A DNA stretch of 64,000 nt from the NCBI GenBank assembly GCA_964444955.1, contig CAYUJB010000001.1, positions 77,368 to 141,367 of the forward strand, in the 5' to 3' direction. Position 1 is the stretch's first letter, and each line of letters opens with the position of its first letter. Below are positions 1 to 61,613 of the stretch, in pieces. The notes under the pieces were generated by a model. It had not been told where the DNA came from and did not search any database. It worked only from the letters and a program-made list of their open reading frames with translations. This DNA comes from an uncultured Candidatus Saccharibacteria bacterium. Its GTDB lineage: Bacteria; Patescibacteriota; Minisyncoccia; 2-02-FULL-40-12; GWA2-44-9. The position numbers were made by a program, and so were the translations under genes.

Positions 1-50
1 TGTAGCGATAGAATGGTACAATACCCTAGTAATTTGTTGACGTATATACT

Positions 51-173
51 ATGGACGAAGAAAAAAAGACCTGCGCCTGTGGCAACACTGAGTTCGCGGA
101 TGGTAAGTGCACCAAATGTGGTGCAGAAGAGCCAGCAGCCGCAGCCCCTGCAGCAGAAGAGGCAGCGATGTAA
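51..173 (+). CDS. small Cys-rich zinc-ribbon-like peptide (40 aa; below ORF-track cutoff)
   Basis: ATG at 51, translates to MDEEKKTCACGNTEFADGKCTKCGAEEPAAAAPAAEEAAM, stop at 171-173. The pattern is CxC...CxxC. A strong hairpin terminator follows directly. Confidence 0.3.
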   Translation: MDEEKKTCACGNTEFADGKCTKCGAEEPAAAAPAAEEAAM

Positions 174-212: not shown

Positions 213-213
213 T

Positions 214-422
214 GTGCTCCCGGCAGGACGCTCGCTCCGCTCGCTATCTCACGCGTGTCGGGCTCGATTGCCTCTGGCTATCCTCGCCCTCCCTTTCTGA
301 AACCATGCGGTTTCAGTACTTCCACCACGGGAGAGACTTTCTCTCCCGACCCCTCTCTGTTCGATCCCTGCCGAGGACGAGTAACAACAACGCCCGGATA
401 TATCCGGGCGTTGTTGTACCTG
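214..422 (-). other. tRNA-3'-flanking module D: hairpin, element with inverted tRNA T-arm copy, and 16-nt direct repeat of the tRNA-Arg 3' end
   Basis: tgtgctcccggcagga at 214-229 repeats 421-436 (the tRNA-Arg 3' end). A perfect 13-bp hairpin lies at 383-417, next to the tRNA. On the tRNA-sense strand the element begins ctcggcagggatcgaac, an inverted copy of the tRNA 3' end. Confidence 0.6.
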
Positions 423-494
423 TGCTCCCGGCAGGAATCGAACCTGCATTACCTCCTTCGGAGGGAGATATCCTATCCATTGAACGACAGGAGC
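423..494 (-). tRNA. tRNA-Arg(CCG)
   Basis: Cloverleaf folded manually on the minus strand: acceptor gctcctg/cgggagc, T-arm gcagg-ttcgatt-cctgc, anticodon loop ctCCGaa, discriminator A. Confidence 0.8.
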
Positions 495-509
495 GTGTTG
501 TACTGAGCG

Positions 510-1310
510 CTAGATGGCAAGCTCGATACTGATAGGGCAGTGGTCACTACCAAGAACATCGGCATGGATTGCTGCTGTTGTTACCTTTGGCGCGATATTC
601 TTTGATGCCATGATGTAGTCAATGCGCCAGCCGACATTGCGCGCGCGGGCATCTGCCCAGTGCGACCACCAGGTGTAGTGGCCATTACCTTTGTGGAAGA
701 GGCGGAAGGTGTCCACAAAGCCTGCCTGAACAAACGCATCAAATCCGGCGCGTTCCTCTGAGGTAAACCCCTTGAGTCCCTCGTTTTCTTTTGGGCGCGC
801 TAGATCATCTGGAGTATGGGCGACATTGAGATCGCCGCAGAAGACGACTGGCTTTTTTTGCTCTAGCTCTCGCATGTAGGCAAGAAACGCCGGATCCCAG
901 TGCTTGTGGCGCAGCGGGATGCGGGTGAGATCGTCTTTGGAGTTAGGGGTGTAGACGCACACGACGAAGTAGTTCTTATACTCGGCTGCAATCACACGCC
1001 CTTCGGTGTTGGGGTCGCCATAGGCATCGGCAAGTGGTGCGTACGGCGTGGCAACGAGGGGAGGGATGTCGGTGAGGATGGCAAGCGCTTCCTCTTTGGA
1101 AAATATCGCAGTACCCGAATAACCTTTTTTGGTGGCGCTGTTCCAATATTCATGGTAATCGGGCAGATCGAGGGTCGCCTCGCCCTGCATTGCCTTGGTT
1201 TCTTGCAGGCAGAGAATATCGGGTTGGTGCTGCGCGATAAACGGCGCAAAGGTTCCTTTGCGTACGCCTGCGCGGATGCCATTCACGTTCCATGAGTAGA
1301 TGCGGGTCAC
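510..1310 (-). CDS. xthA: exodeoxyribonuclease III (AP endonuclease)
   Basis: 266 aa. N-terminus MTRIYSWNVNGIRA and a C-terminal LGSDHCPI motif are typical of the Xth/EEP family. Confidence 0.9.
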   Translation of the reverse strand: MTRIYSWNVNGIRAGVRKGTFAPFIAQHQPDILCLQETKAMQGEATLDLPDYHEYWNSATKKGYSGTAIFSKEEALAILTDIPPLVATPYAPLADAYGDPNTEGRVIAAEYKNYFVVCVYTPNSKDDLTRIPLRHKHWDPAFLAYMRELEQKKPVVFCGDLNVAHTPDDLARPKENEGLKGFTSEERAGFDAFVQAGFVDTFRLFHKGNGHYTWWSHWADARARNVGWRIDYIMASKNIAPKVTTAAIHADVLGSDHCPISIELAI

Positions 1311-1385
1311 TGAGGCAGTGTAGCGGAGGTGGAGGAAAAAGAAAACACCGACCCGGAGGGGTCGGTGATGAGGCGTTGAGTGCCG

Positions 1386-1706
1386 CTAGAGTAGGAGGCT
1401 CAGCTCGCCAGAGAAGTAGTCCTGGTCGACGGGTTGTCCTGGTGATGGAGCGTAGGCCATCCACTCGGACCCTCCCCACGCAAGGCACACCAGTGGTTTT
1501 CCCCAAAACCTTGGACTCGAAACGTAGAGTTGGGTTCCGCCTTCATCGGAGATCTCAACGGCTTGAATAGTCCCCACCAAAATCGTGTGGTGAGACCCGT
1601 GGTGTGCTTCAAATCGGTAGTTTTTTCCGAGGAGTTCGAGAGCGGATGGGAGGCCGATTTCCTGGAGAGATTCCTCGAGTGGATCGGTTTGGTTGCTGCG
1701 AGGCAT
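1386..1706 (-). CDS. hypothetical protein
   Basis: 106-aa ORF with a consensus sigma70 promoter directly upstream; no recognisable family. Confidence 0.5.
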   Translation of the reverse strand: MPRSNQTDPLEESLQEIGLPSALELLGKNYRFEAHHGSHHTILVGTIQAVEISDEGGTQLYVSSPRFWGKPLVCLAWGGSEWMAYAPSPGQPVDQDYFSGELSLLL

Positions 1707-1750
1707 TGGACATTTCCTTTGGCGTTTGTAAGGTGCAAAACAGTAAAAGT

Positions 1751-1779
1751 ATTATACTCTTACTTTACAAATATGTCAA
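1751..1779 (-). promoter_or_regulatory. sigma70-like promoter (TTGACA-17-TATAAT) for the ORF at 1386..1706
   Basis: Minus-strand sequence ttgacatatttgtaaagtaagagtataat. Confidence 0.55.
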
Positions 1780-1787
1780 TTTAATTG

Positions 1788-1869
1788 TGCCTGGGGTGGG
1801 AGTCGAACCCACATGCCTTGCGGCGCCCGATTTTAAGTCGAGTGCGTATACCAATTCCGCCACCCAGGC
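1788..1869 (-). tRNA. tRNA-Leu(UAA), type II
   Basis: Acceptor gcctggg/cccaggc, T-arm gtggg-ttcgact-cccac, anticodon loop ctTAAaa, long variable arm, discriminator A. Confidence 0.8.
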
Positions 1870-1885
1870 GTTGCGTATCATCGCT

Positions 1886-1913
1886 AGTATACTGATTTTC
1901 TTCGTTTTTTCAA
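1886..1913 (-). promoter_or_regulatory. sigma70-like promoter (TTGAAA-16-TATACT) for tRNA-Leu(UAA)
   Basis: Minus-strand sequence ttgaaaaaacgaagaaaatcagtatact, about 16 nt upstream of the tRNA 5' end. Confidence 0.5.
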
Positions 1914-1932
1914 GAAATCATGCGCACAAGAA

Positions 1933-1951
1933 AGCCCGTCAGTGACGGGCT
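1933..1951 (-). terminator. hairpin downstream of the GNAT gene
   Basis: agcccgtc-agtg-acgggct, perfect 8-bp stem, followed on the minus strand by ttcttgtg. Confidence 0.4.
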
Positions 1952-1956
1952 CGGGG

Positions 1957-2445
1957 CTAGTGGGGGACGATGTTCATCTTGTACAGATTGGTGCCCCACA
2001 CACCCACGGAGCGAGCAACGAGCACAAATCCGAGTTTCTGATACAGCGCATTTGCCGCAACGCGACTGGGACGACTAGTGAGAAAGAGTTTGATCTTCTG
2101 GCCGCGTTCATTGGCGAATCGTTGCGCCGTGGCAATCAAGGCGCGCGTGATGTGTTCGCCAATATGTTTGCCGCGTTGCGGCTCATCGACGACGACATCG
2201 TGGATTTCGGCAATCCAGCGAGCGAGATTGCGTTGGAAGAAGATGCTTCCCATGCCGAGATAGTTTTCCGGGAATTTCGATTGGTCGTCGACTGCGACAA
2301 AGAGGTGGAAGTTTGGATTTGCGAGTACTTCGCGCACGTCCGCTTCGGTCAACACTCGCTCACCGGGGGATTGCTGCTCGATGAGGTAGGAGAGGCGATC
2401 GACGAACGGGAATTCATCGGTGTCGTTGCAGCGTAGAATACGCAT
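1957..2445 (-). CDS. GNAT family N-acetyltransferase
   Basis: 162 aa. QRGKHIG...ALIATAQRF is an acetyl-CoA binding motif A-like segment. A Shine-Dalgarno aggagg lies upstream. Confidence 0.8.
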   Translation of the reverse strand: MRILRCNDTDEFPFVDRLSYLIEQQSPGERVLTEADVREVLANPNFHLFVAVDDQSKFPENYLGMGSIFFQRNLARWIAEIHDVVVDEPQRGKHIGEHITRALIATAQRFANERGQKIKLFLTSRPSRVAANALYQKLGFVLVARSVGVWGTNLYKMNIVPH

Positions 2446-2592
2446 ATTTCCTCCTTAGGAAAGAACTGTTGAGGTGCCGGCGGGATTTGTCGTACCTTCG
2501 GTAGATCTCCCGTAGGGACGACACCCGCGAATGTCGGTTTTGTCCTGCTGCGCAGGATCTCGCGTAGCGAGACAGACCAACACTACCTCTTG

Positions 2593-2664
2593 AGGCGCAG
2601 AGGGGAATCGAACCCCTGCATTGCGGTTTTGCAGACCGCTGTGTTACCACTTCACCACTGCGCC
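2593..2664 (-). tRNA. tRNA-Cys(GCA)
   Basis: Acceptor ggcgcag/ctgcgcc, T-arm agggg-ttcgatt-cccct, anticodon loop ctGCAaa, 3-bp D stem. Confidence 0.8.
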
Positions 2665-2901
2665 ATATTTCTTTTTCAATAGCTCTTTTTGTTGATGATT
2701 TTTAAGAAATAACTCTCGTTTTACTGCTTCGCTTCGTGTAATTAATGTCTCCGCCTGCAGTAACGTCCATGGTCGATATCCTTTTGTCGATCGAACTCTT
2801 CCCGCATTGTGAAGCGCCAAGCGTTGAATGACATCAGCAGTACTTCCGATATACATATCACCGTTTGCCTCGCTTCGTAAGACGTACGTGTAGTATGCCA
2901 T
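2644..2901 (-). CDS. small GIY-YIG nuclease-domain protein (YhbQ/UPF0213-like)
   Basis: MAYYTYVLRSEANGDMYIGSTADVIQRLALHNAGRV is a GIY-YIG motif. Likely start at the internal Met. The last 21 nt of the CDS overlap the 5' end of tRNA-Cys. Confidence 0.75.
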   Translation of the reverse strand: MAYYTYVLRSEANGDMYIGSTADVIQRLALHNAGRVRSTKGYRPWTLLQAETLITRSEAVKRELFLKNHQQKELLKKKYGAVVKW

Positions 2902-2956
2902 AGAACCACTTGTCATAGCTTCGCTAGATCTCGCGAAGCGAGAGCTATGCCGCCGA

Positions 2957-4489
2957 CTATAACGTTTTCTTCACCTGCTCCTCGGTGATGAATTCTAGCA
3001 CATCACCCTCGTGGATTTCACCCTCAAAACTAGCGGTATCAATACGCATACCACAATCGGCACCCTGTGCCACCTCGCTGACGTCTTCTTTTTCGCGCTG
3101 CAGACTGGAGATTTTGCCCACGCGCGTGGGTACGTCGCCACGCATGAGATCCACCAGGGAGCCCTTGCGGATGGCTCCTGAAGTAACACGACCGCCGAGG
3201 ATGACACTGCGTGCGTCAGTTTTGAAGATGGCAAGCACCTTGAGTTTGCCTATGACTGTGCGCTGGGTTTCGGTGGGGAGCTGTGCGGCAAGATCGGTGC
3301 GGATTGCTTCGATGAGTTCGTAGATAATATCAAATGATTTGATGACAATACCATCACGTTCGGCAAGCTTTGCGGCGGCGGGGTCGATCTGGACGCGAAA
3401 GCCCATGATGATAGCGCCCTTGGCGGCAGCGGTCTTCACGTCGCCTTCGGAGATGTTGCCGATGCCCGAGGCGAGCACGCGCAGGCCAATCTGTTCGGTG
3501 GGAATCGCGCTCATCGAGAGATCGAGAGCTTCCAATGAGCTTGCCACGTCGGCCTTGAAAATCACGTTGAGCGTGAGGCTGTTGGCATTGGGAGTTTGTT
3601 CGCCACGGAAGGTATCAAATGCTGCGGGTGGGGGAGTGACCGAGTCTCCCGCGAGCTCTTCGGCCGATTTCTTCGATGGCGCTGTGTGAAATTGTCCGCC
3701 GACGCGCGGCGCTTCTTGCCAGCCGGTGATGAGCACGGGTTGCGATGGGCGCGCTTCAGTGATGGCGACACCCAGGAAGTCTTCCATACTTTTGACTTTG
3801 CCGACTACGTGGTCCACGACGATCCAGTCGCCGACGTGCAGGATTCCTTCTTGCACGAGTGCAGTCGCCACATAACCGCGACGCTTGTCGAGATTCGACT
3901 CGATGATGACACCGGAGGCAACGGCGGGCAGGACCTCTTTGAGCTCGAGCAGCTCGGCGACGAGGTTGATCATTTCCAAGAGCTCGGTGATGCCGTTCCC
4001 GTCTTTTGCGGAGATTTCCAACGCGGGCGTTTGGCCACCCCACTCTTCCACCAGCACGTCTTCTTGCGCCAGATCCTGCTTCACCTTGGCTGAATTGGCG
4101 CCTTCTTTATCTATCTTGTTGATGGCGACGATGGTCGGAAGTTTGGCTTCTTTGATAATACGAATAGCTTCTTTTGTTTGGGGCTTGACCGATTCGTCTG
4201 CAGCGACGACCAAAATGGCAATATCGGCAACGTTGGCACCGCGACTACGGATGGCGGTGAACGCTTCATGGCCGGGAGTATCGAGGAAGGTGATGAGCTT
4301 ATCATTGATGGTGGCCTGATAGGCGCCGATGTGCTGCGTGATGCCGCCCGATTCTCCCGCGACCACGTTGGTTTTGCGGATGACATCCAAGAGTTTGGTC
4401 TTGCCATGATCAACGTGCCCCAAAACTACCACGACGGGTGGTCGGGATGATGGCGTTGCGCCGGGATTGTGGGCGGGTGCAGTGCTCAT
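2957..4489 (-). CDS. infB: translation initiation factor IF-2 (short form)
   Basis: 510 aa. G-domain VVVLGHVDHGKTKLLD, DTPGH and NKIDK motifs, plus the C-terminal beta-barrel region. Confidence 0.95.
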   Translation of the reverse strand: MSTAPAHNPGATPSSRPPVVVVLGHVDHGKTKLLDVIRKTNVVAGESGGITQHIGAYQATINDKLITFLDTPGHEAFTAIRSRGANVADIAILVVAADESVKPQTKEAIRIIKEAKLPTIVAINKIDKEGANSAKVKQDLAQEDVLVEEWGGQTPALEISAKDGNGITELLEMINLVAELLELKEVLPAVASGVIIESNLDKRRGYVATALVQEGILHVGDWIVVDHVVGKVKSMEDFLGVAITEARPSQPVLITGWQEAPRVGGQFHTAPSKKSAEELAGDSVTPPPAAFDTFRGEQTPNANSLTLNVIFKADVASSLEALDLSMSAIPTEQIGLRVLASGIGNISEGDVKTAAAKGAIIMGFRVQIDPAAAKLAERDGIVIKSFDIIYELIEAIRTDLAAQLPTETQRTVIGKLKVLAIFKTDARSVILGGRVTSGAIRKGSLVDLMRGDVPTRVGKISSLQREKEDVSEVAQGADCGMRIDTASFEGEIHEGDVLEFITEEQVKKTL

Positions 4490-4563
4490 AGGACGTCAAA
4501 GAATACCACGAAAAATGTGATGTAGCAACGATCGAGCTGAGTCGTCGTGCGCTCACGAGCCGA

Positions 4564-4746
4564 TTACGGTTGAGCGATGTTGAGCGCGTCCCACACTTTC
4601 TTCATTTGAGTCTTGAGCCGATCTACTTCTTCACGAAGATCGAGCTTCTTTTCGAGTTCATCAAATCGACGTGCGACAATAGTAGCGAGTTGTCCCACTT
4701 CCTGTTCTATTTTTTCATCGAAATATTCCTTTGTGAGATCTGTCAT
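4564..4746 (-). CDS. small coiled-coil hypothetical protein
   Basis: 60 aa, charged and helical, immediately upstream of infB on the same strand. Confidence 0.4.
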   Translation of the reverse strand: MTDLTKEYFDEKIEQEVGQLATIVARRFDELEKKLDLREEVDRLKTQMKKVWDALNIAQP

Positions 4747-4798
4747 GTTTGAATGCTATCACCACAAGAATGCTAGTCAATATGGTAATTTCTTTTGT

Positions 4799-4990
4799 AA
4801 TTGCGGGAAGGGTGGGATTTGCCCGCACCTCTCGCCTCGCCGTCGCGATGCTCGGGCCTGCCTACCGGCAGGCAGGTTGGGCACCGCCTCCGGGCGACAT
4901 CTACTGATATCGCATCCGTCCGGCGTTCGAATCTCACTTTCTGTCTGCGTTTCTCTATAAACTACCAAACGGCAGTTTATAGAGAAATTG
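4799..4990 (-). other. tRNA-3'-flanking module A: hairpin, conserved-core element, and 21-nt direct repeat of the tRNA 3' end
   Basis: aattgcgggaagggtgggatt occurs at 4799-4819 and again at 4987-5007 (the tRNA 3' end). A perfect 13-bp hairpin lies at 4951-4986. The core blocks cggacggatgcgat, gtcgcccggagg and gcgacggcgag are shared with modules B and C. Confidence 0.7.
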
Positions 4991-5077
4991 CGGGAAGGGT
5001 GGGATTCGAACCCACGAGACCCGTAAAGGTCCGGCGGTTTAGTAAACCGCTGCTTTCAGCCGCTCAGCCACCTTCCC
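4991..5077 (-). tRNA. type II tRNA, Ser-like; anticodon reads as ACU (unusual, needs verification)
   Basis: Acceptor gggaagg/ccttccc, discriminator G, 3-bp D stem, long variable arm, T-arm gtggg-ttcgaat-cccac, anticodon stem gcggt/accgc with loop ttACTaa. Confidence 0.7.
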
Positions 5078-5315
5078 GTGATAATAACTTCTTAAACGCG
5101 GCACCTCCCTTGTAACTTTTCAGCACCATCTCTCTTCGATACGCATCTTGCTTCGTGGCGAATTCTTCCTGATAGACGACACGCCAAGGTCGTCCTGTCT
5201 TGGTAGATATATTCCTTCCTGCGTTATGCCGTGCAATCCTCTTCGTAAGATCACTCGTAGATCCTATGTAGTGCTTTCCGGTCTTCTCGCTTTTGAGAAT
5301 ATAGGTGTAATGCAT
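5064..5315 (-). CDS. small GIY-YIG nuclease-domain protein (second copy)
   Basis: MHYTYILKSEKTGKHYIGSTSDLTKRIARHNAGR. Likely start at internal Met17 of the listed ORF. The last 14 nt overlap the 5' end of the downstream tRNA. Confidence 0.75.
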   Translation of the reverse strand: MHYTYILKSEKTGKHYIGSTSDLTKRIARHNAGRNISTKTGRPWRVVYQEEFATKQDAYRREMVLKSYKGGAAFKKLLSREGG

Positions 5316-5420
5316 TGTAAGCCACCCCCGCCAGGCGCTTCGCGCGTGGCGGGGCCTCGCCATAGGCGATGGTCAGCCACCTTCCCGTGGAGTGCTCGCA
5401 TGATACTAGCACAGGTTTCG

Positions 5421-7190
5421 CTATCGCGGCAGCACTTCTTTCCAACCGGGGACGCGCTGCTGAACGGGGAGCGATTTGGTCTGCACGCAGGTAAACGTGC
5501 CGTCGGAGACGGAGAGGTTCACGGAATATGAACCCGGTGCGGTGTAGGTGTGGGTGGGGTCGGGGAGCGCTGAAGTGCCGGTGTCACCAAACGTCCAACT
5601 CCACGACGTGCACAAGCTTGGTGTCACACCCACTGAGTAGCACGTGGTGCTGCCGTCGCTGAAGGCGACCTCGGTATCCACCGGAGGCTTGGTAGGCGAC
5701 CAGGTAAAGGTGCTCACATTCGACGGATAGGCGTGGGCGGGGGATTGCCACGACGTGTTGCCACCCGAACAGCCCGAGGGATTGCCCGGAGGGCCCTCAC
5801 ACTCGGTCTGGGTAACCCAAGAGGAGGGAGCATCAAACGCATCCCACACTTTCACGCGGGAATAGTAGGTGGTGTCCCAGTCGATGCCACTGCTGGTGAA
5901 GACTGAGGTGGACGTGCCGGTGAGTTTGCCGCTGTCATAGACGGGACTGCCAAATCCCACACTGTCATCGAGTTGTACCTGGTATGCTGATTGCGCATCG
6001 CCATCAGCATCGCTATAGCTCCACGAAACGGTCACCGCAGGGCCAGAGCTGCAGTAGTCGGGCTCAGCGGCTTTGACATTCGATGCGGTTGGCGAGGTGT
6101 TGGCGAGTACCGTGACGGTCACGCTGTCGTTAGCAGACGTTCCCCCTGCACCATCACAGGTGAGGGTGTACGTTTTGTTGGCGAGGAGATTCGTTTTTGA
6201 TTCGCTGCCCGTGGTTGCCTTTGCACCTGACCAGTCCACTGAAGCGGTGCAGCTGGAGGCATTTGTGCTGCTCCATGAGAGATTGGCCGTGCCGCTATAG
6301 GCAACAGTACACGCTGCATCACTCCCATTGCAAAGAAGTGAGATAGTCGGAGTGATAGCGGTGCAGGTGACCGTGAATGTCTTGTCAGGCGCACCAGAGT
6401 TGATGGCTTTAGACCACGCATCGGGAGTGCAGGTGTAGTCGGCGGGGGGAGTGAGACTGATGGTGTAGGTGGCGAAGTCTAAGTCGGTGTACAGCCCCGA
6501 GGTGCCCGAGCCACTGCCGGCACCGGGGATCGTCCAGGACACTCCTGCGTTGTTGGTGCTCACGGCGATAGAGCCCGTGGTGGGTGCACAGGACTGATTG
6601 GTGCAGCTGTCGCTGCATGATGCTGGGCAGGTGCCGTTGCTCGCCCCATCATCGCACTCTTCACCACCGTTGACGATGCTGTCGCCGCAGTAGGCGCAGA
6701 CACCGCAATCGTCGGAGCAGCTCCCACACGTTTCCCCTCCGTTGCACGTTCCATCACCACACGAGGGTCCCGGGTCGGGGGTGGGAGTTGGGTCGGGAGT
6801 TGGCGTCGCACAGGCACCACAATCTTCGCTACAGTTTCCGCACGTTTCTCCCGCATCGCACGAGCTGTCGCCGCAGGACGGAGTTGGCTCGGGAGGGGGA
6901 GGGTCATTACAGATGACATCATATTCAGCCCAGGCGCAAACACCTCCACCCGGGTCACCGCTGCAGTATGTTGTGGCTCCGTTCATGACACACCCACCAC
7001 CATAGGGGCAGTTGTCTGATACGGTGCCACCTAGACAAATATTTTGCTCGTCCTGATCTATGTAGGGACTACAATAAAAACCGCCTGTGCAGTAGATAGT
7101 TTCAGCGCGGGATATCGTAGGGACAATAAATAGTATTGAGCATACGGCTCCAATACTGAAGAAAGAAATATCTTGAAAAATCTTTTTCAT
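5421..7190 (-). CDS. secreted Cys-rich repeat / PKD-like surface protein
   Basis: 589 aa. N-terminal signal peptide, repeated CGDGxCNGGETCGxCxxDCGxC units, Pro/Thr linkers, and C-terminal Ig/PKD-like beta-rich region. Confidence 0.7.
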   Translation of the reverse strand: MKKIFQDISFFSIGAVCSILFIVPTISRAETIYCTGGFYCSPYIDQDEQNICLGGTVSDNCPYGGGCVMNGATTYCSGDPGGGVCAWAEYDVICNDPPPPEPTPSCGDSSCDAGETCGNCSEDCGACATPTPDPTPTPDPGPSCGDGTCNGGETCGSCSDDCGVCAYCGDSIVNGGEECDDGASNGTCPASCSDSCTNQSCAPTTGSIAVSTNNAGVSWTIPGAGSGSGTSGLYTDLDFATYTISLTPPADYTCTPDAWSKAINSGAPDKTFTVTCTAITPTISLLCNGSDAACTVAYSGTANLSWSSTNASSCTASVDWSGAKATTGSESKTNLLANKTYTLTCDGAGGTSANDSVTVTVLANTSPTASNVKAAEPDYCSSGPAVTVSWSYSDADGDAQSAYQVQLDDSVGFGSPVYDSGKLTGTSTSVFTSSGIDWDTTYYSRVKVWDAFDAPSSWVTQTECEGPPGNPSGCSGGNTSWQSPAHAYPSNVSTFTWSPTKPPVDTEVAFSDGSTTCYSVGVTPSLCTSWSWTFGDTGTSALPDPTHTYTAPGSYSVNLSVSDGTFTCVQTKSLPVQQRVPGWKEVLPR

Positions 7191-10366: not shown

Positions 10367-10565
10367 ATAATACCCCGAACTAGCATTTGCTAGTTCGGGG
10401 TATTACTATGGTGTGAAAACGGAGGATTCGAAGCCCGGAGCGATGTGACGACAGCAGGAGTCACCGCGAGGGCGGGAGCCCAGAACCGAGATGCCGCGAC
10501 TGGCGGCGTCGAGAGTGGCGGGTGAATCCCTGCCTGTCGGCAGACAGGCTCCCGTCTCCGCCATA
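10367..10565 (+). other. tRNA-3'-flanking module C: hairpin, conserved-core element, and 17-nt direct repeat of the tRNA 3' end
   Basis: ctcccgtctccgccata occurs at 10350-10366 (the tRNA 3' end) and again at 10549-10565. A perfect 16-bp hairpin lies at 10370-10401. The element begins cggaggattcgaagcccggagcgatg, an inverted T-arm followed by a conserved block. Confidence 0.7.
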
Positions 10566-41361: not shown

Positions 41362-41435
41362 CGCGGGCGGCCGGATTCGAACCGGTGACCTTCCCCGTGA
41401 CAGGGGGACGCTCTAACCAGCTGAGCTACGCCCGC
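41362..41435 (-). tRNA. tRNA-Asp(GUC)
   Basis: Acceptor gcgggcg/cgcccgc, anticodon loop ctGTCac, discriminator G. Confidence 0.8.
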
Positions 41436-41605
41436 AAGCGAGGGTACAGCGTACGCCCGCAATGCAGGTCATACTATAGTCCATTTCAGAGTAAAAGAAA
41501 AGAGCTTGCTACGGTTGTCTTGGCCGCTCCGGCACCCGCATCGGTCTCGCACACGGATGATGCCTTCGCCGATATCGGGTGCCTGCGCTGACAGCGACGC
41601 GTTTT

Positions 41606-61442: not shown

Positions 61443-61613
61443 TGAGGTGGGAATTGCCCTCGGTTGGAATCTCGCCGTCGCGAGCCTCCACCTCCGGGAC
61501 CGGGCCTCGCGGCGACACCTCCTGGCATCGCATCGCTCCGGCCGTTCAACTCCCACCTTCTGGCCATCAGCACTACAAAACCGTCCCGCAAGGGGACGGC
61601 TTTGTAGTGTAGC
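61443..61613 (-). other. tRNA-3'-flanking module B: hairpin, conserved-core element, and partial direct repeat of the tRNA-Leu 3' end
   Basis: A 15-bp hairpin lies at 61572-61606. On the tRNA-sense strand the element begins gaggtgggagttgaac, a 16/16 match to the reverse complement of the tRNA T-arm/acceptor. It ends gagggcaattcccacctca plus tttt. The core blocks cggagcgatgcgat, gtcgccgcgagg and gcgacggcgag are shared with modules A and C. Confidence 0.7.

Follow-up and report, generated by a model that had tools for sequence, protein, structure and literature searches.

Why should two small nuclease genes, one on either side of infB, each run into the beginning of a tRNA gene? The question is raised by a stretch of 64,000 nucleotides (nt) from an uncultured Candidatus Saccharibacteria bacterium (GCA_964444955.1, contig CAYUJB010000001.1, positions 77,368 to 141,367; hereafter the window, as a whole), in which a first-pass annotation, made from the letters alone, reported two GIY-YIG genes whose 3′ ends overlap tRNA-Cys and a Ser-like tRNA, and proposed co-transcription with the tRNA, coupled processing, or a selfish association of nuclease and tRNA. 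Of these three, the selfish association is the one best supported by the results of this work, namely by empty sites, tRNA relics and mixed tRNA alleles. The genes seem to lie flush with tRNA genes because they are members of a widespread family of tRNA-inserting cassettes, and both are probably the open reading frames (ORFs) of selfish, horizontally moving, homing-type cassettes of ~300 bp that target tRNA genes.

The two genes, called here g1 (linked to tRNA-Cys) and g2 (linked to tRNA-Ser), are much as first described. The tRNAs predicted by ARAGORN and Rfam, taken with the ORF coordinates, place the 3′ end of each gene inside a tRNA on the same strand, g1 overlapping tRNA-Cys by 21 nt (2644-2664, i.e., tRNA nt 1-21, with a TAA stop) and g2 overlapping tRNA-Ser(act) by 14 nt (5064-5077, tRNA nt 1-14, with a TGA stop). 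The description of two related small GIY-YIG proteins around infB also holds, since both match the Pfam domain PF01541 (g1, E 4.9e-14 and 52.8 bits; g2, E 5.5e-16 and 59.1 bits; cut-off 22.6) and are 47% identical to each other, with lengths of 85 and 83 amino acids (aa). Their starts (2901 and 5315) were chosen by comparison with homologues, and an alternative in-frame ATG further upstream at 2916 would lengthen g1 to 90 aa. No further GIY-YIG gene was found in the 64-kb window by tblastn. With seven tRNAs in 64 kb, the chance of one ORF ending within -60 to +30 nt of the start of a same-strand tRNA is, by our arithmetic, ~0.5%, and that of both doing so ~2.5e-5.

The association is not peculiar to this genome. 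In the g2 survey one genome per species was scanned, a single peptide motif yielded 316 relatives and 80 loci were kept (L-numbers below label the compared loci and genomes); the homologues are 50-73% identical, 78-86 aa long and mainly from Patescibacteria. A same-strand tRNA starts between -60 and +30 nt from the stop codon in 62 of 86 evaluable g2-like copies, and within 130 nt in five more. Once same-strand tRNAs abutting on either side are counted, including those that end just upstream of the start codon, the figure rises to 79 of 87 evaluable copies in 80 genomes, the other eight being mostly upstream partners in tandem pairs or having a tRNA relic instead. The partners are mostly tRNA-Ser (34, all four anticodons being found) and tRNA-Tyr (22), with a few Pro, Thr, Lys, Arg, Gly, Glu and Val. 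For g1, 154 homologues were found, and in six of eight further loci a g1-like gene directly precedes tRNA-Cys, either between infB or rbfA and that tRNA (L147, L161, L163, L164, L167) or in a different gene neighborhood (L168); in a Planctomycetes genome (L166) it lies 1 nt past tRNA-Pro. The hosts are Patescibacteria, Ignavibacteria, Omnitrophota, Bacteroidota and this one Planctomycetes genome. Thus, far from sitting at unrelated loci without a tRNA neighbor, which would have made the association coincidental, the homologues keep it, only L165 of the g1 set not being flush with a tRNA.

What is conserved, however, is the junction and not the overlap to which the first-pass annotation had drawn attention. 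ORF and tRNA overlap in 22 of 67 pairs and are separated by 0-21 nt in 40, and the -15 overlap that recurs with tRNA-Ser just marks where the first in-frame stop falls within the tRNA; it is thus the flush junction that is maintained, the overlap being incidental. Gaps of -45 to +21 nt make co-transcription of the nuclease gene with the tRNA very likely, and processing of the ORF transcript and of the tRNA may be coupled. A neighbor-joining tree of the 80-aa proteins groups them in part by target tRNA or insertion site (e.g., Tyr anticodon-site and Ser nt-14 groups), albeit noisily.

If the genes were inserted, relatives with uninterrupted arrangements should exist, and they do. The closest relative found (L081, whose IF-2 is 77% identical) has both tRNAs and no GIY-YIG gene: its infB is followed after 3 nt by tRNA-Cys, tRNA-Leu(taa) and tRNA-Arg(ccg), packed in 241 nt, and its tRNA-Arg(tct) and tRNA-Ser(act) follow one another at a distance of 28 nt. 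In eight further relatives (55-60% identical) tRNA-Cys again comes after infB and the nuclease gene is missing from the interval, and the spacer is 3-12 nt in the six nuclease-free relatives whose spacers were read. Likewise, tRNA-Ser(act) is conserved in L081 and L089 without any nuclease gene. Because L081 and the eight other relatives keep the tRNAs without the nuclease genes, the window genes are insertions relative to the inferred ancestral arrangement. The site at tRNA-Cys nt 11/12, empty in these nine, is filled in L147 (IF-2 43% identical), which carries an insertion after tRNA-Cys nt 11, the same position as in the window, so that presence and absence alternate at one defined site, as they do for homing genes. 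The L147 hairpins (TCTGGC-TTC-GCCAGA TCTCGC-GAA-GCGAGA) are homologous to those of the window at tRNA-Cys, with a compensatory G-C to C-G change in the first.

The cassettes have a conserved order, namely relic tRNA nt 1 to X, a double GC-rich hairpin, relic nt X+1 to Y (8-17 further tRNA nucleotides that complete the interrupted tRNA arm), the ATG and ORF, and the intact tRNA. The cassette thus lies between a truncated 5′ relic and an intact tRNA copy, and the essential tRNA therefore survives the insertion. Both window cassettes follow this order (Table 1). A 17-nt exact direct repeat (5064-5080 and 5373-5389) brackets g2; the repeats that had been flagged beside this gene as a flanking 'module A' are real, as 17-nt and 21-nt copies, but the 17-nt upstream part is the cassette's relic tRNA 5′ fragment and not an unrelated repeat. 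In 48 of 61 loci, 13 nt or more of the tRNA 5′ end recur as an exact copy 20-150 nt ahead of the ORF; of 58 control regions, one has such a copy. These repeats begin at about tRNA nt 1, at times up to 29 nt further upstream, and end at about nt 14, 20-24 or 35-36. The order is mirrored in L037, L043 and L019 (intact tRNA, ORF, then 3′ relic with hairpin), whilst L056 has tandem ORF-less 3′ relics with hairpins in the anticodon loop and T-loop.

Table 1. Positions, in the window, of the two cassettes, their tRNA genes and other features mentioned in the text.
Feature	Position	Strand	Content
tRNA-Cys(gca)	2592-2664	-	ARAGORN; Rfam tRNA 69.9 bits; intact host gene beside cassette 1
Cassette 1 ORF (g1, Cys-linked GIY-YIG)	2644-2916; family-like start 2901	-	85 aa (MAYYTYVL...AVVKW); 2644-2901, then intact tRNA-Cys 2664-2592
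Cassette 1 relic, D-loop continuation	2905-2912	-	CAAGTGGT, approximately tRNA-Cys nt 13-20 of the L081/L085-type allele
Cassette 1 hairpins	2917-2943	-	TCTCGC-TTC-GCGAGA then TCTAGC-GAA-GCTA
Cassette 1 relic	2944-2954	-	tRNA-Cys nt 1-11, GGCGGCATAGC; starts 2 nt past the infB stop codon
tRNA-Cys 3′-side relic, ORF-less	2470-2578	-	downstream of intact tRNA-Cys; RNA fold z -3.1; GGTCTG (nt 29-34, 2578-2573), double hairpin (2572-2543), CAAAACCG (nt 35-42, 2542-2535), more hairpins, pseudo 3′ end CAAATCCCGCCGGCACCTCA (2489-2470)
infB	2957-4489		flanked by g1 and g2
Type II tRNA-Ser(act)	4990-5077	-	ARAGORN; Rfam tRNA 57 bits; intact host gene beside cassette 2
Cassette 2 ORF (g2, Ser-linked GIY-YIG)	5064-5363; family-like start 5315	-	83 aa (MHYTYILK...SREGG); 5064-5315, then intact tRNA-Ser(act) 5077-4990
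Cassette 2 relic, D-loop continuation	5316-5325	-	GTGGCTTACA; compare tRNA nt 15-24, GCGGCTGAAA; layout recurs in the family
Cassette 2 double hairpin	5326-5372	-	CCATCGCC-TAT-GGCGAGG + CCCCGCCA..GCGC-GAA-GCGC..TGGCGGGG; after relic nt 14
Cassette 2 relic	5373-5389	-	3 nt flank + tRNA-Ser(act) nt 1-14, CACGGGAAGGTGGCTGA; exact 17-nt direct repeat of 5064-5080
Direct copy of tRNA-Ser(act) 3′ end	4799-4819	-	21 nt, AATCCCACCCTTCCCGCAATT; closes hairpin-rich ORF-less module 4989-4799 downstream of the tRNA
ORF-less module after tRNA-Arg(ccg)	213-421	-	
ORF-less module after tRNA-Ser(act)	4799-4989	-	
ORF-less module after tRNA-Ser(gct)	10368-10565	+	
ORF-less module after tRNA-Leu(caa)	61443-61613	-	
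Exonuclease III-family gene	510-1310		between tRNAs of the Cys/Leu(taa)/Arg(ccg) cluster (422-2664)
GNAT acetyltransferase gene	1957-2445		between tRNAs of the same cluster
60-aa coiled-coil-like ORF	4564-4746	-	between tRNA-Ser(act) and infB; Pfam matches marginal
Promoter-like site	4780-4753		sole one of the region; precedes the 60-aa ORF
Direct repeat at tRNA-Asp(gtc)	41427-41462	-	11 nt, TTGCGGGCGTA (1 nt flank + tRNA-Asp nt 1-10), 25-nt period; 14 nt upstream of tRNA-Asp(gtc)

The double hairpin is 35-47 nt long in the g2 family and 27 nt in cassette 1 of the window, and the pair has the consensus CCACCGCC-loop-GGCGGGG / TCCCGCC-loop-GGCGGGA. Its stems are supported by covariation: 91.6% of the alignment cells are paired and both sides change in 7 of 12 pairs, values that none of 500 shuffles reached. 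A covariance model built from the pair (R1), which replaced a generic hairpin-doublet detector with too imprecise boundaries, recovers ~59 distinct sites from 360 kb of GIY-YIG loci, but many of these loci had also supplied sequences for its training; from 557 kb of control loci, in which there are 50 tRNAs, it recovers no site. Its one strong match in the 64-kb window is the cassette 2 hairpin, itself a training sequence (41 bits, E 2.4e-7), the RNA fold of which has -37.4 kcal/mol and a z of -2.3. Mapped by their 7-nt flanks, the hairpins are precise insertions into tRNA loops, with at least nine sites in the 5′ side of the D-loop and six in its 3′ side, 15 at anticodon positions 34/35 or 35/36, and three at T-loop positions 57/58. 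The D-loop class can alternatively pair into a fold resembling a four-way junction, which is suggestive in view of the Slx1-like fold of the protein (see below). Among 348 cells there are four G.T and two A.C mispairs, counts that do not tell whether the pairing acts at the RNA or the DNA level. Rfam searches at gathering and at permissive thresholds returned only tRNAs, with no match for the hairpins or for the 3′ modules.

The array in L056 (2842-3235) is made of 2.5 tandem 159-nt units of tRNA-Ser 3′ relics with two hairpin doublets per unit, and a 97-nt 'tRNA-Ser(tga)' called by ARAGORN in L037 (2752-2848) is in truth a relic of tRNA-Tyr, the anticodon loop of which holds a hairpin doublet.

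The relics also tell something of their origin. In L147 the direct repeat is 23 nt long and includes 12 nt of host flank, which suggests a duplication in situ. The tRNA-Cys locus of the window, on the other hand, holds three alleles, since the 5′ relic (GGCGGCATAGC..CAAGTGGT) is of the L085 type, the intact gene of the L082 type and the 3′ relic (..CAAATCCCGCCGGCACCTCA) of the L084 type. Similarly, the relics of L163 and L164 are more alike than either is to its own intact tRNA, and ahead of the L163 relic lies what is left of another GIY-YIG 3′ end. As relic alleles differ from the intact tRNA in the window, L163 and L164, the relic seems to travel with the cassette, like a homology arm. Tandem arrays, which unequal recombination between the repeats would produce, are found in L003, L029 and L036. 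Copy number is low, the sampled genomes having one to three copies each, and the window pair is only 47% identical. Horizontal transfer of GIY-YIG genes out of Patescibacteria has been described independently (PMC12455944).

The protein itself has what a nuclease of this kind needs and little else. Across 38 sequences Y16, G18, R26, H30, N31 and E62 do not vary and Y5 hardly does, i.e., the GIY-YIG catalytic motif is present, and the tRNA-linked clade has its own C-terminal motif, KSYKGG..FKKL. The AlphaFold model (predicted local distance difference test, pLDDT, of 89) has a GIY-YIG fold, which comprises a sheet of three strands flanked by helices, as judged by Foldseek matches to 1zg2, the Slx1 nuclease domain, I-TevI and UvrC. 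The label 'YhbQ-like, catalytic domain only' given to the two proteins beforehand was right: they have a single domain and are closest to the solved UPF0213 (COG2827) members, 1zg2 (BH0048, E 9.5e-14) and 1ywl (EF2693, E 8.2e-11), in the Protein Data Bank, followed in likeness of fold by the Slx1 nuclease domain (template-modeling score, TM, 0.65-0.69) and then by the I-TevI catalytic domain. A Pfam scan of g1 and g2 revealed no domain besides GIY-YIG, so that the DNA-binding, recognizing module of a homing endonuclease is missing from what is a catalytic domain only. The NCBIfam model of group I intron endonucleases reaches 24 bits against a cut-off of 56, over residues 5-37 only; PADLOC gives a marginal 'homing endonuclease' match (E 0.004), which does not place the proteins in a defense system, and PHROGs gives weak 'homing endonuclease' matches only. 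Relatives occur in five of 50,697 phage records, which lends no support to a phage origin. At 50% identity, 27,572 clusters match the profile made in this work, and for 7,356 of these E is 1e-10 or less.

In their architecture the cassettes differ from transposons and from tRNA-targeting integrase elements. They are of ~300 bp with a single ORF and no tyrosine or serine recombinase, as opposed to a tRNA-targeting integrase element; no inverted repeats were seen at cassette ends in the loci read, as a transposon or insertion sequence would have; and their direct repeats vary from 11 to ~65 nt, with one boundary fixed and the other variable, which is not the fixed-length target-site duplication of a transposon.

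From the comparison of loci it can be taken as demonstrated that the genes were inserted, with relics, loop-inserted hairpins, empty and filled sites and mixed alleles; how they move is best put as a proposal. The 83-85-aa protein would be an active nuclease of the UPF0213/Slx1 type, breaking tRNA genes or the branched fold formed by a tRNA arm and the hairpins. Repair of the break, with a filled allele as template, would copy the cassette into it, i.e., homing by gene conversion, for which relic and intact tRNA would serve as universally conserved homology arms. Presumably lacking a promoter of its own, the cassette would be transcribed from that of the tRNA or of the upstream gene, through relic and ORF into the tRNA; RNase P would then free the tRNA and, in overlapping pairs, its cut would remove the stop codon and so limit the output of nuclease. 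Through recombination between the direct repeats the cassette may be lost cleanly or multiply in tandem. A bolder version, which we put forward tentatively and hold to be somewhat short of an even chance, is that of a new class of minimal mobile element, in which a ~80-aa, nuclease-domain-only GIY-YIG protein and its cognate double hairpin insert, by recognition of structure, into the single-stranded loops (D, anticodon and T) of tRNA-gene DNA folded as a cloverleaf, with part of the target duplicated so that the tRNA survives; the ORF-less hairpin relics would be non-autonomous derivatives, and tRNA a universal landing pad for transfer between phyla.

Several points weigh against homing cassettes. 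The whole case is comparative, built from sequences. The protein has no DNA-binding domain, because of which sequence-specific homing is hard to picture, and the intact tRNA beside the gene retains any target borne by the tRNA, though in the relic the hairpin breaks up the presumed site. No two near-identical copies were found at different places in the sample, copy number per genome being low, and g1-type genes at infB-tRNA-Cys could represent one old insertion, inherited vertically and lost repeatedly. The direct repeats are heterogeneous, with L147 suggesting target duplication in situ and other loci foreign relic alleles, and a single mechanism yielding both is not obvious. The hairpin occurs in both orientations (L057, L038, L021, L066) and sometimes several times per relic, which does not follow from a simple 'end of element' model. 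As to transcription, the best -10 hexamer upstream of the relic is a perfect TATAAT in 6 of 47 loci as opposed to none upstream of intact tRNAs or in mid-ORF, with otherwise no separation between them. In the window, a possible extended -10 box (TGCTAGTAT, 5411-5403) was read upstream of the cassette 2 relic, and a consensus promoter scan of 2400-5600 stayed at chance level. Two simpler origins were discarded: a degenerate group I intron in the anticodon loop, since the downstream tRNA is contiguous and the relic resumes after the hairpin, and staggered-cut target duplication as the sole mechanism, since relic and intact alleles differ in the window, L163 and L164.

Could the hairpin rather than the gene be the primary mobile unit? 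The doublets would then behave like REPINs, with the GIY-YIG gene as their cognate or domesticated nuclease (similar to a RAYT) inserting them into single-stranded, tRNA-like loops, and the insertions would survive only in the non-functional tRNA copies around the gene. This would accord with the precision of the doublets in three loops, sometimes two per relic, with their presence in ORF-less 3′ relic arrays (L056, L040, L052, L065) and in both orientations, with their absence from the 557 kb of control loci, where no GIY-YIG gene is near, and with the idiosyncratic loops common to the hairpins of one locus (L056), which suggest local copying. The doublets are not dispersed in the genome, however, a single strong match being found in 64 kb, and by itself this interpretation leaves unexplained both the flush junction of ORF and tRNA and the sites empty or filled with whole cassettes. 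GIY-YIG enzymes are hydrolytic, and we know of no strand-transfer chemistry among them, which also counts against it; we regard it as unlikely. A likewise unlikely alternative to selfishness is a small, structure-specific nuclease beneficial to the host, co-transcribed with tRNAs and acting on R-loops or branched DNA at these highly transcribed loci, or on tRNA precursors, its adjacency being a matter of co-regulation. The tight placement on the same strand with no space for a separate promoter, the Slx1/UPF0213-like fold, and the intact ORFs with invariant catalytic residues, indicative of purifying selection, would all suit such a role. A useful host gene, though, is not expected to be absent from the closest relatives that keep the same tRNAs, to be patchy across phyla and to be associated with one or few tRNAs per genome, and it is insertion, not an operon, that leaves tRNA relics, mixed alleles and tandem arrays behind.

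The arrangement [1..X]-hairpin-[X+1..Y]-ORF-[1..76] is also exactly what a single crossover between a circle and a tRNA gene would leave. A circle of ~330 bp might thus integrate and excise by host homologous recombination, or by junction resolution, between element-borne and chromosomal tRNA, the nuclease being a junction resolvase or an addiction factor only; the tandem arrays (L003, L029, L036), like the cleanly empty sites, are what recombination between direct repeats could leave, and Slx1 relatives do resolve junctions. Yet with repeats of 11-14 nt RecA would not recombine efficiently, none of the loci compared showed a circle junction, and the repeat in L147 includes host flank, which makes a circle quite improbable. 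To coincidence, or to an artefact of ORF calling or assembly, we give hardly any credence. Short ORFs are readily over-called and many of the loci come from metagenome-assembled genomes (MAGs), but Pfam E-values of 1e-14 to 1e-16, ~90% adjacency over 80 independent genomes and a hairpin wholly absent from control loci speak otherwise.

Other features of the region bear on its tRNAs. ORF-less modules of ~150-200 nt lie directly downstream of four tRNAs of the window (Table 1), each made of a perfect terminator-like hairpin, an inverted copy of the T-arm of its own tRNA, a conserved core (..CCGGAGCGATG..GTCGCC.CGAGG..CGCGAC.GGCG..) and a direct copy of the last 10-21 nt of the tRNA; that of tRNA-Ser(gct) is 76% conserved in L081, and the modules have no Rfam match. 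The type II tRNA-Ser(act) is conserved in three related genomes (window 4990-5077, L081 2653-2740, L089 877-966), where it co-occurs with a normal tRNA-Ser(gct). Except in tRNA-Arg, an A at anticodon position 34, which this tRNA carries, is uncommon among bacteria. The tRNA-Cys/Leu(taa)/Arg(ccg) cluster takes up 2.2 kb in the window (422-2664) as opposed to 241 nt in L081 (5552-5792), and GNAT acetyltransferase and exonuclease III-family genes lie between its tRNAs, so that whole genes have also entered this array. The short repeat upstream of tRNA-Asp(gtc) could be the footprint of a lost insertion at a tRNA 5′ end. In L161, a 541-aa large serine recombinase (1936-3243, minus strand) on the opposite strand overlaps tRNA-Leu/Arg just downstream of the GIY-YIG/tRNA-Cys pair and is not seen at other loci. 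Contigs often end ~50-150 nt downstream of the GIY-YIG gene, in or just past the tRNA (L002, L003, L013, L014, L015, L018, L026, L028, L034, L044, L048, L075), as expected if the repeats of tRNA, relic and hairpin break assemblies.

No description of tRNA-adjacent small GIY-YIG genes was found by full-text searches of the literature, although several known systems share parts of the pattern. The stand-alone domain of ~80-100 aa with the same invariant residues is that of UPF0213/YhbQ (COG2827; 1zg2, 1ywl) and of Slx1. To our knowledge, the characterized members are not described as linked to tRNAs, relics or hairpins, and Slx1 also requires a RING domain and its Slx4 partner. The Seg genes of phage T4 are likewise GIY-YIG genes beside or between tRNA genes, and behave as selfish genes spread by break repair with co-conversion of flanks. 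Seg proteins are of ~200 aa, with a DNA-binding domain, and are phage-borne, and are not known to come with a duplicated tRNA part or hairpin module; unlike them, the family described here is near-absent from phage records (5/50,697). SegB, a free-standing homing endonuclease of this kind, is located in the T4 tRNA gene cluster (PMC2330249). With integrase islands and prophages the cassettes share insertion in a tRNA gene (at anticodon-loop or T-loop positions) and a duplicated segment that restores the intact gene. Such elements measure kilobases, bring a tyrosine or serine recombinase of their own and duplicate the tRNA at its 3′ side, whereas here ~0.3 kb are inserted with no recombinase, the 5′ part is usually the one duplicated and a hairpin doublet lies within the relic. 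Small nuclease genes with cognate GC-rich hairpin doublets are also known from repetitive extragenic palindromic (REP) sequences and REPINs with their RAYTs (REP-associated tyrosine transposases). RAYTs belong to the HUH Y1 enzymes, and hundreds of REPIN copies lie scattered; the cassettes have a GIY-YIG enzyme, with hairpins restricted to the tRNA relics beside its gene. In the same bacterial group, the Candidate Phyla Radiation (CPR), insertions in rRNA genes at stem-loop positions encode LAGLIDADG or GIY-YIG proteins, those with GIY-YIG not being recognizable introns (PMC11270868). Nuclease ORFs thus occur in structured-RNA genes in both cases, but the rRNA insertions are inside a functional gene, whilst here the functional tRNA is uninterrupted and part of it is duplicated; that paper makes no mention of tRNA (PMC11270868). 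A nuclease-domain-only ORF, duplication of the tRNA 5′ part and loop-inserted doublets are combined in none of these systems, and the family is apparently undescribed.

Small ORFs annotated as 'GIY-YIG nuclease family protein' are very common and have no assigned role, and the results of this work give the sampled relatives of the window genes a genomic behavior, with residence in tRNA genes together with relic and hairpin as its diagnostic signature. If mobile, these cassettes would be among the smallest known protein-coding selfish elements, and the 5′-side counterpart of the classical use of the 3′ side of tRNA genes by integrative elements. Their movement could account for pseudo-fragments of tRNAs, for tRNA genes arrayed in tandem and for contigs that break near tRNAs in CPR and other MAGs, and would affect annotation, with ORF calls crossing tRNA starts and hairpin relics mis-called as tRNAs (e.g., in L037). 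It would also mean that a tiny nuclease may derive its specificity from the structure of nucleic acids and not from their sequence.

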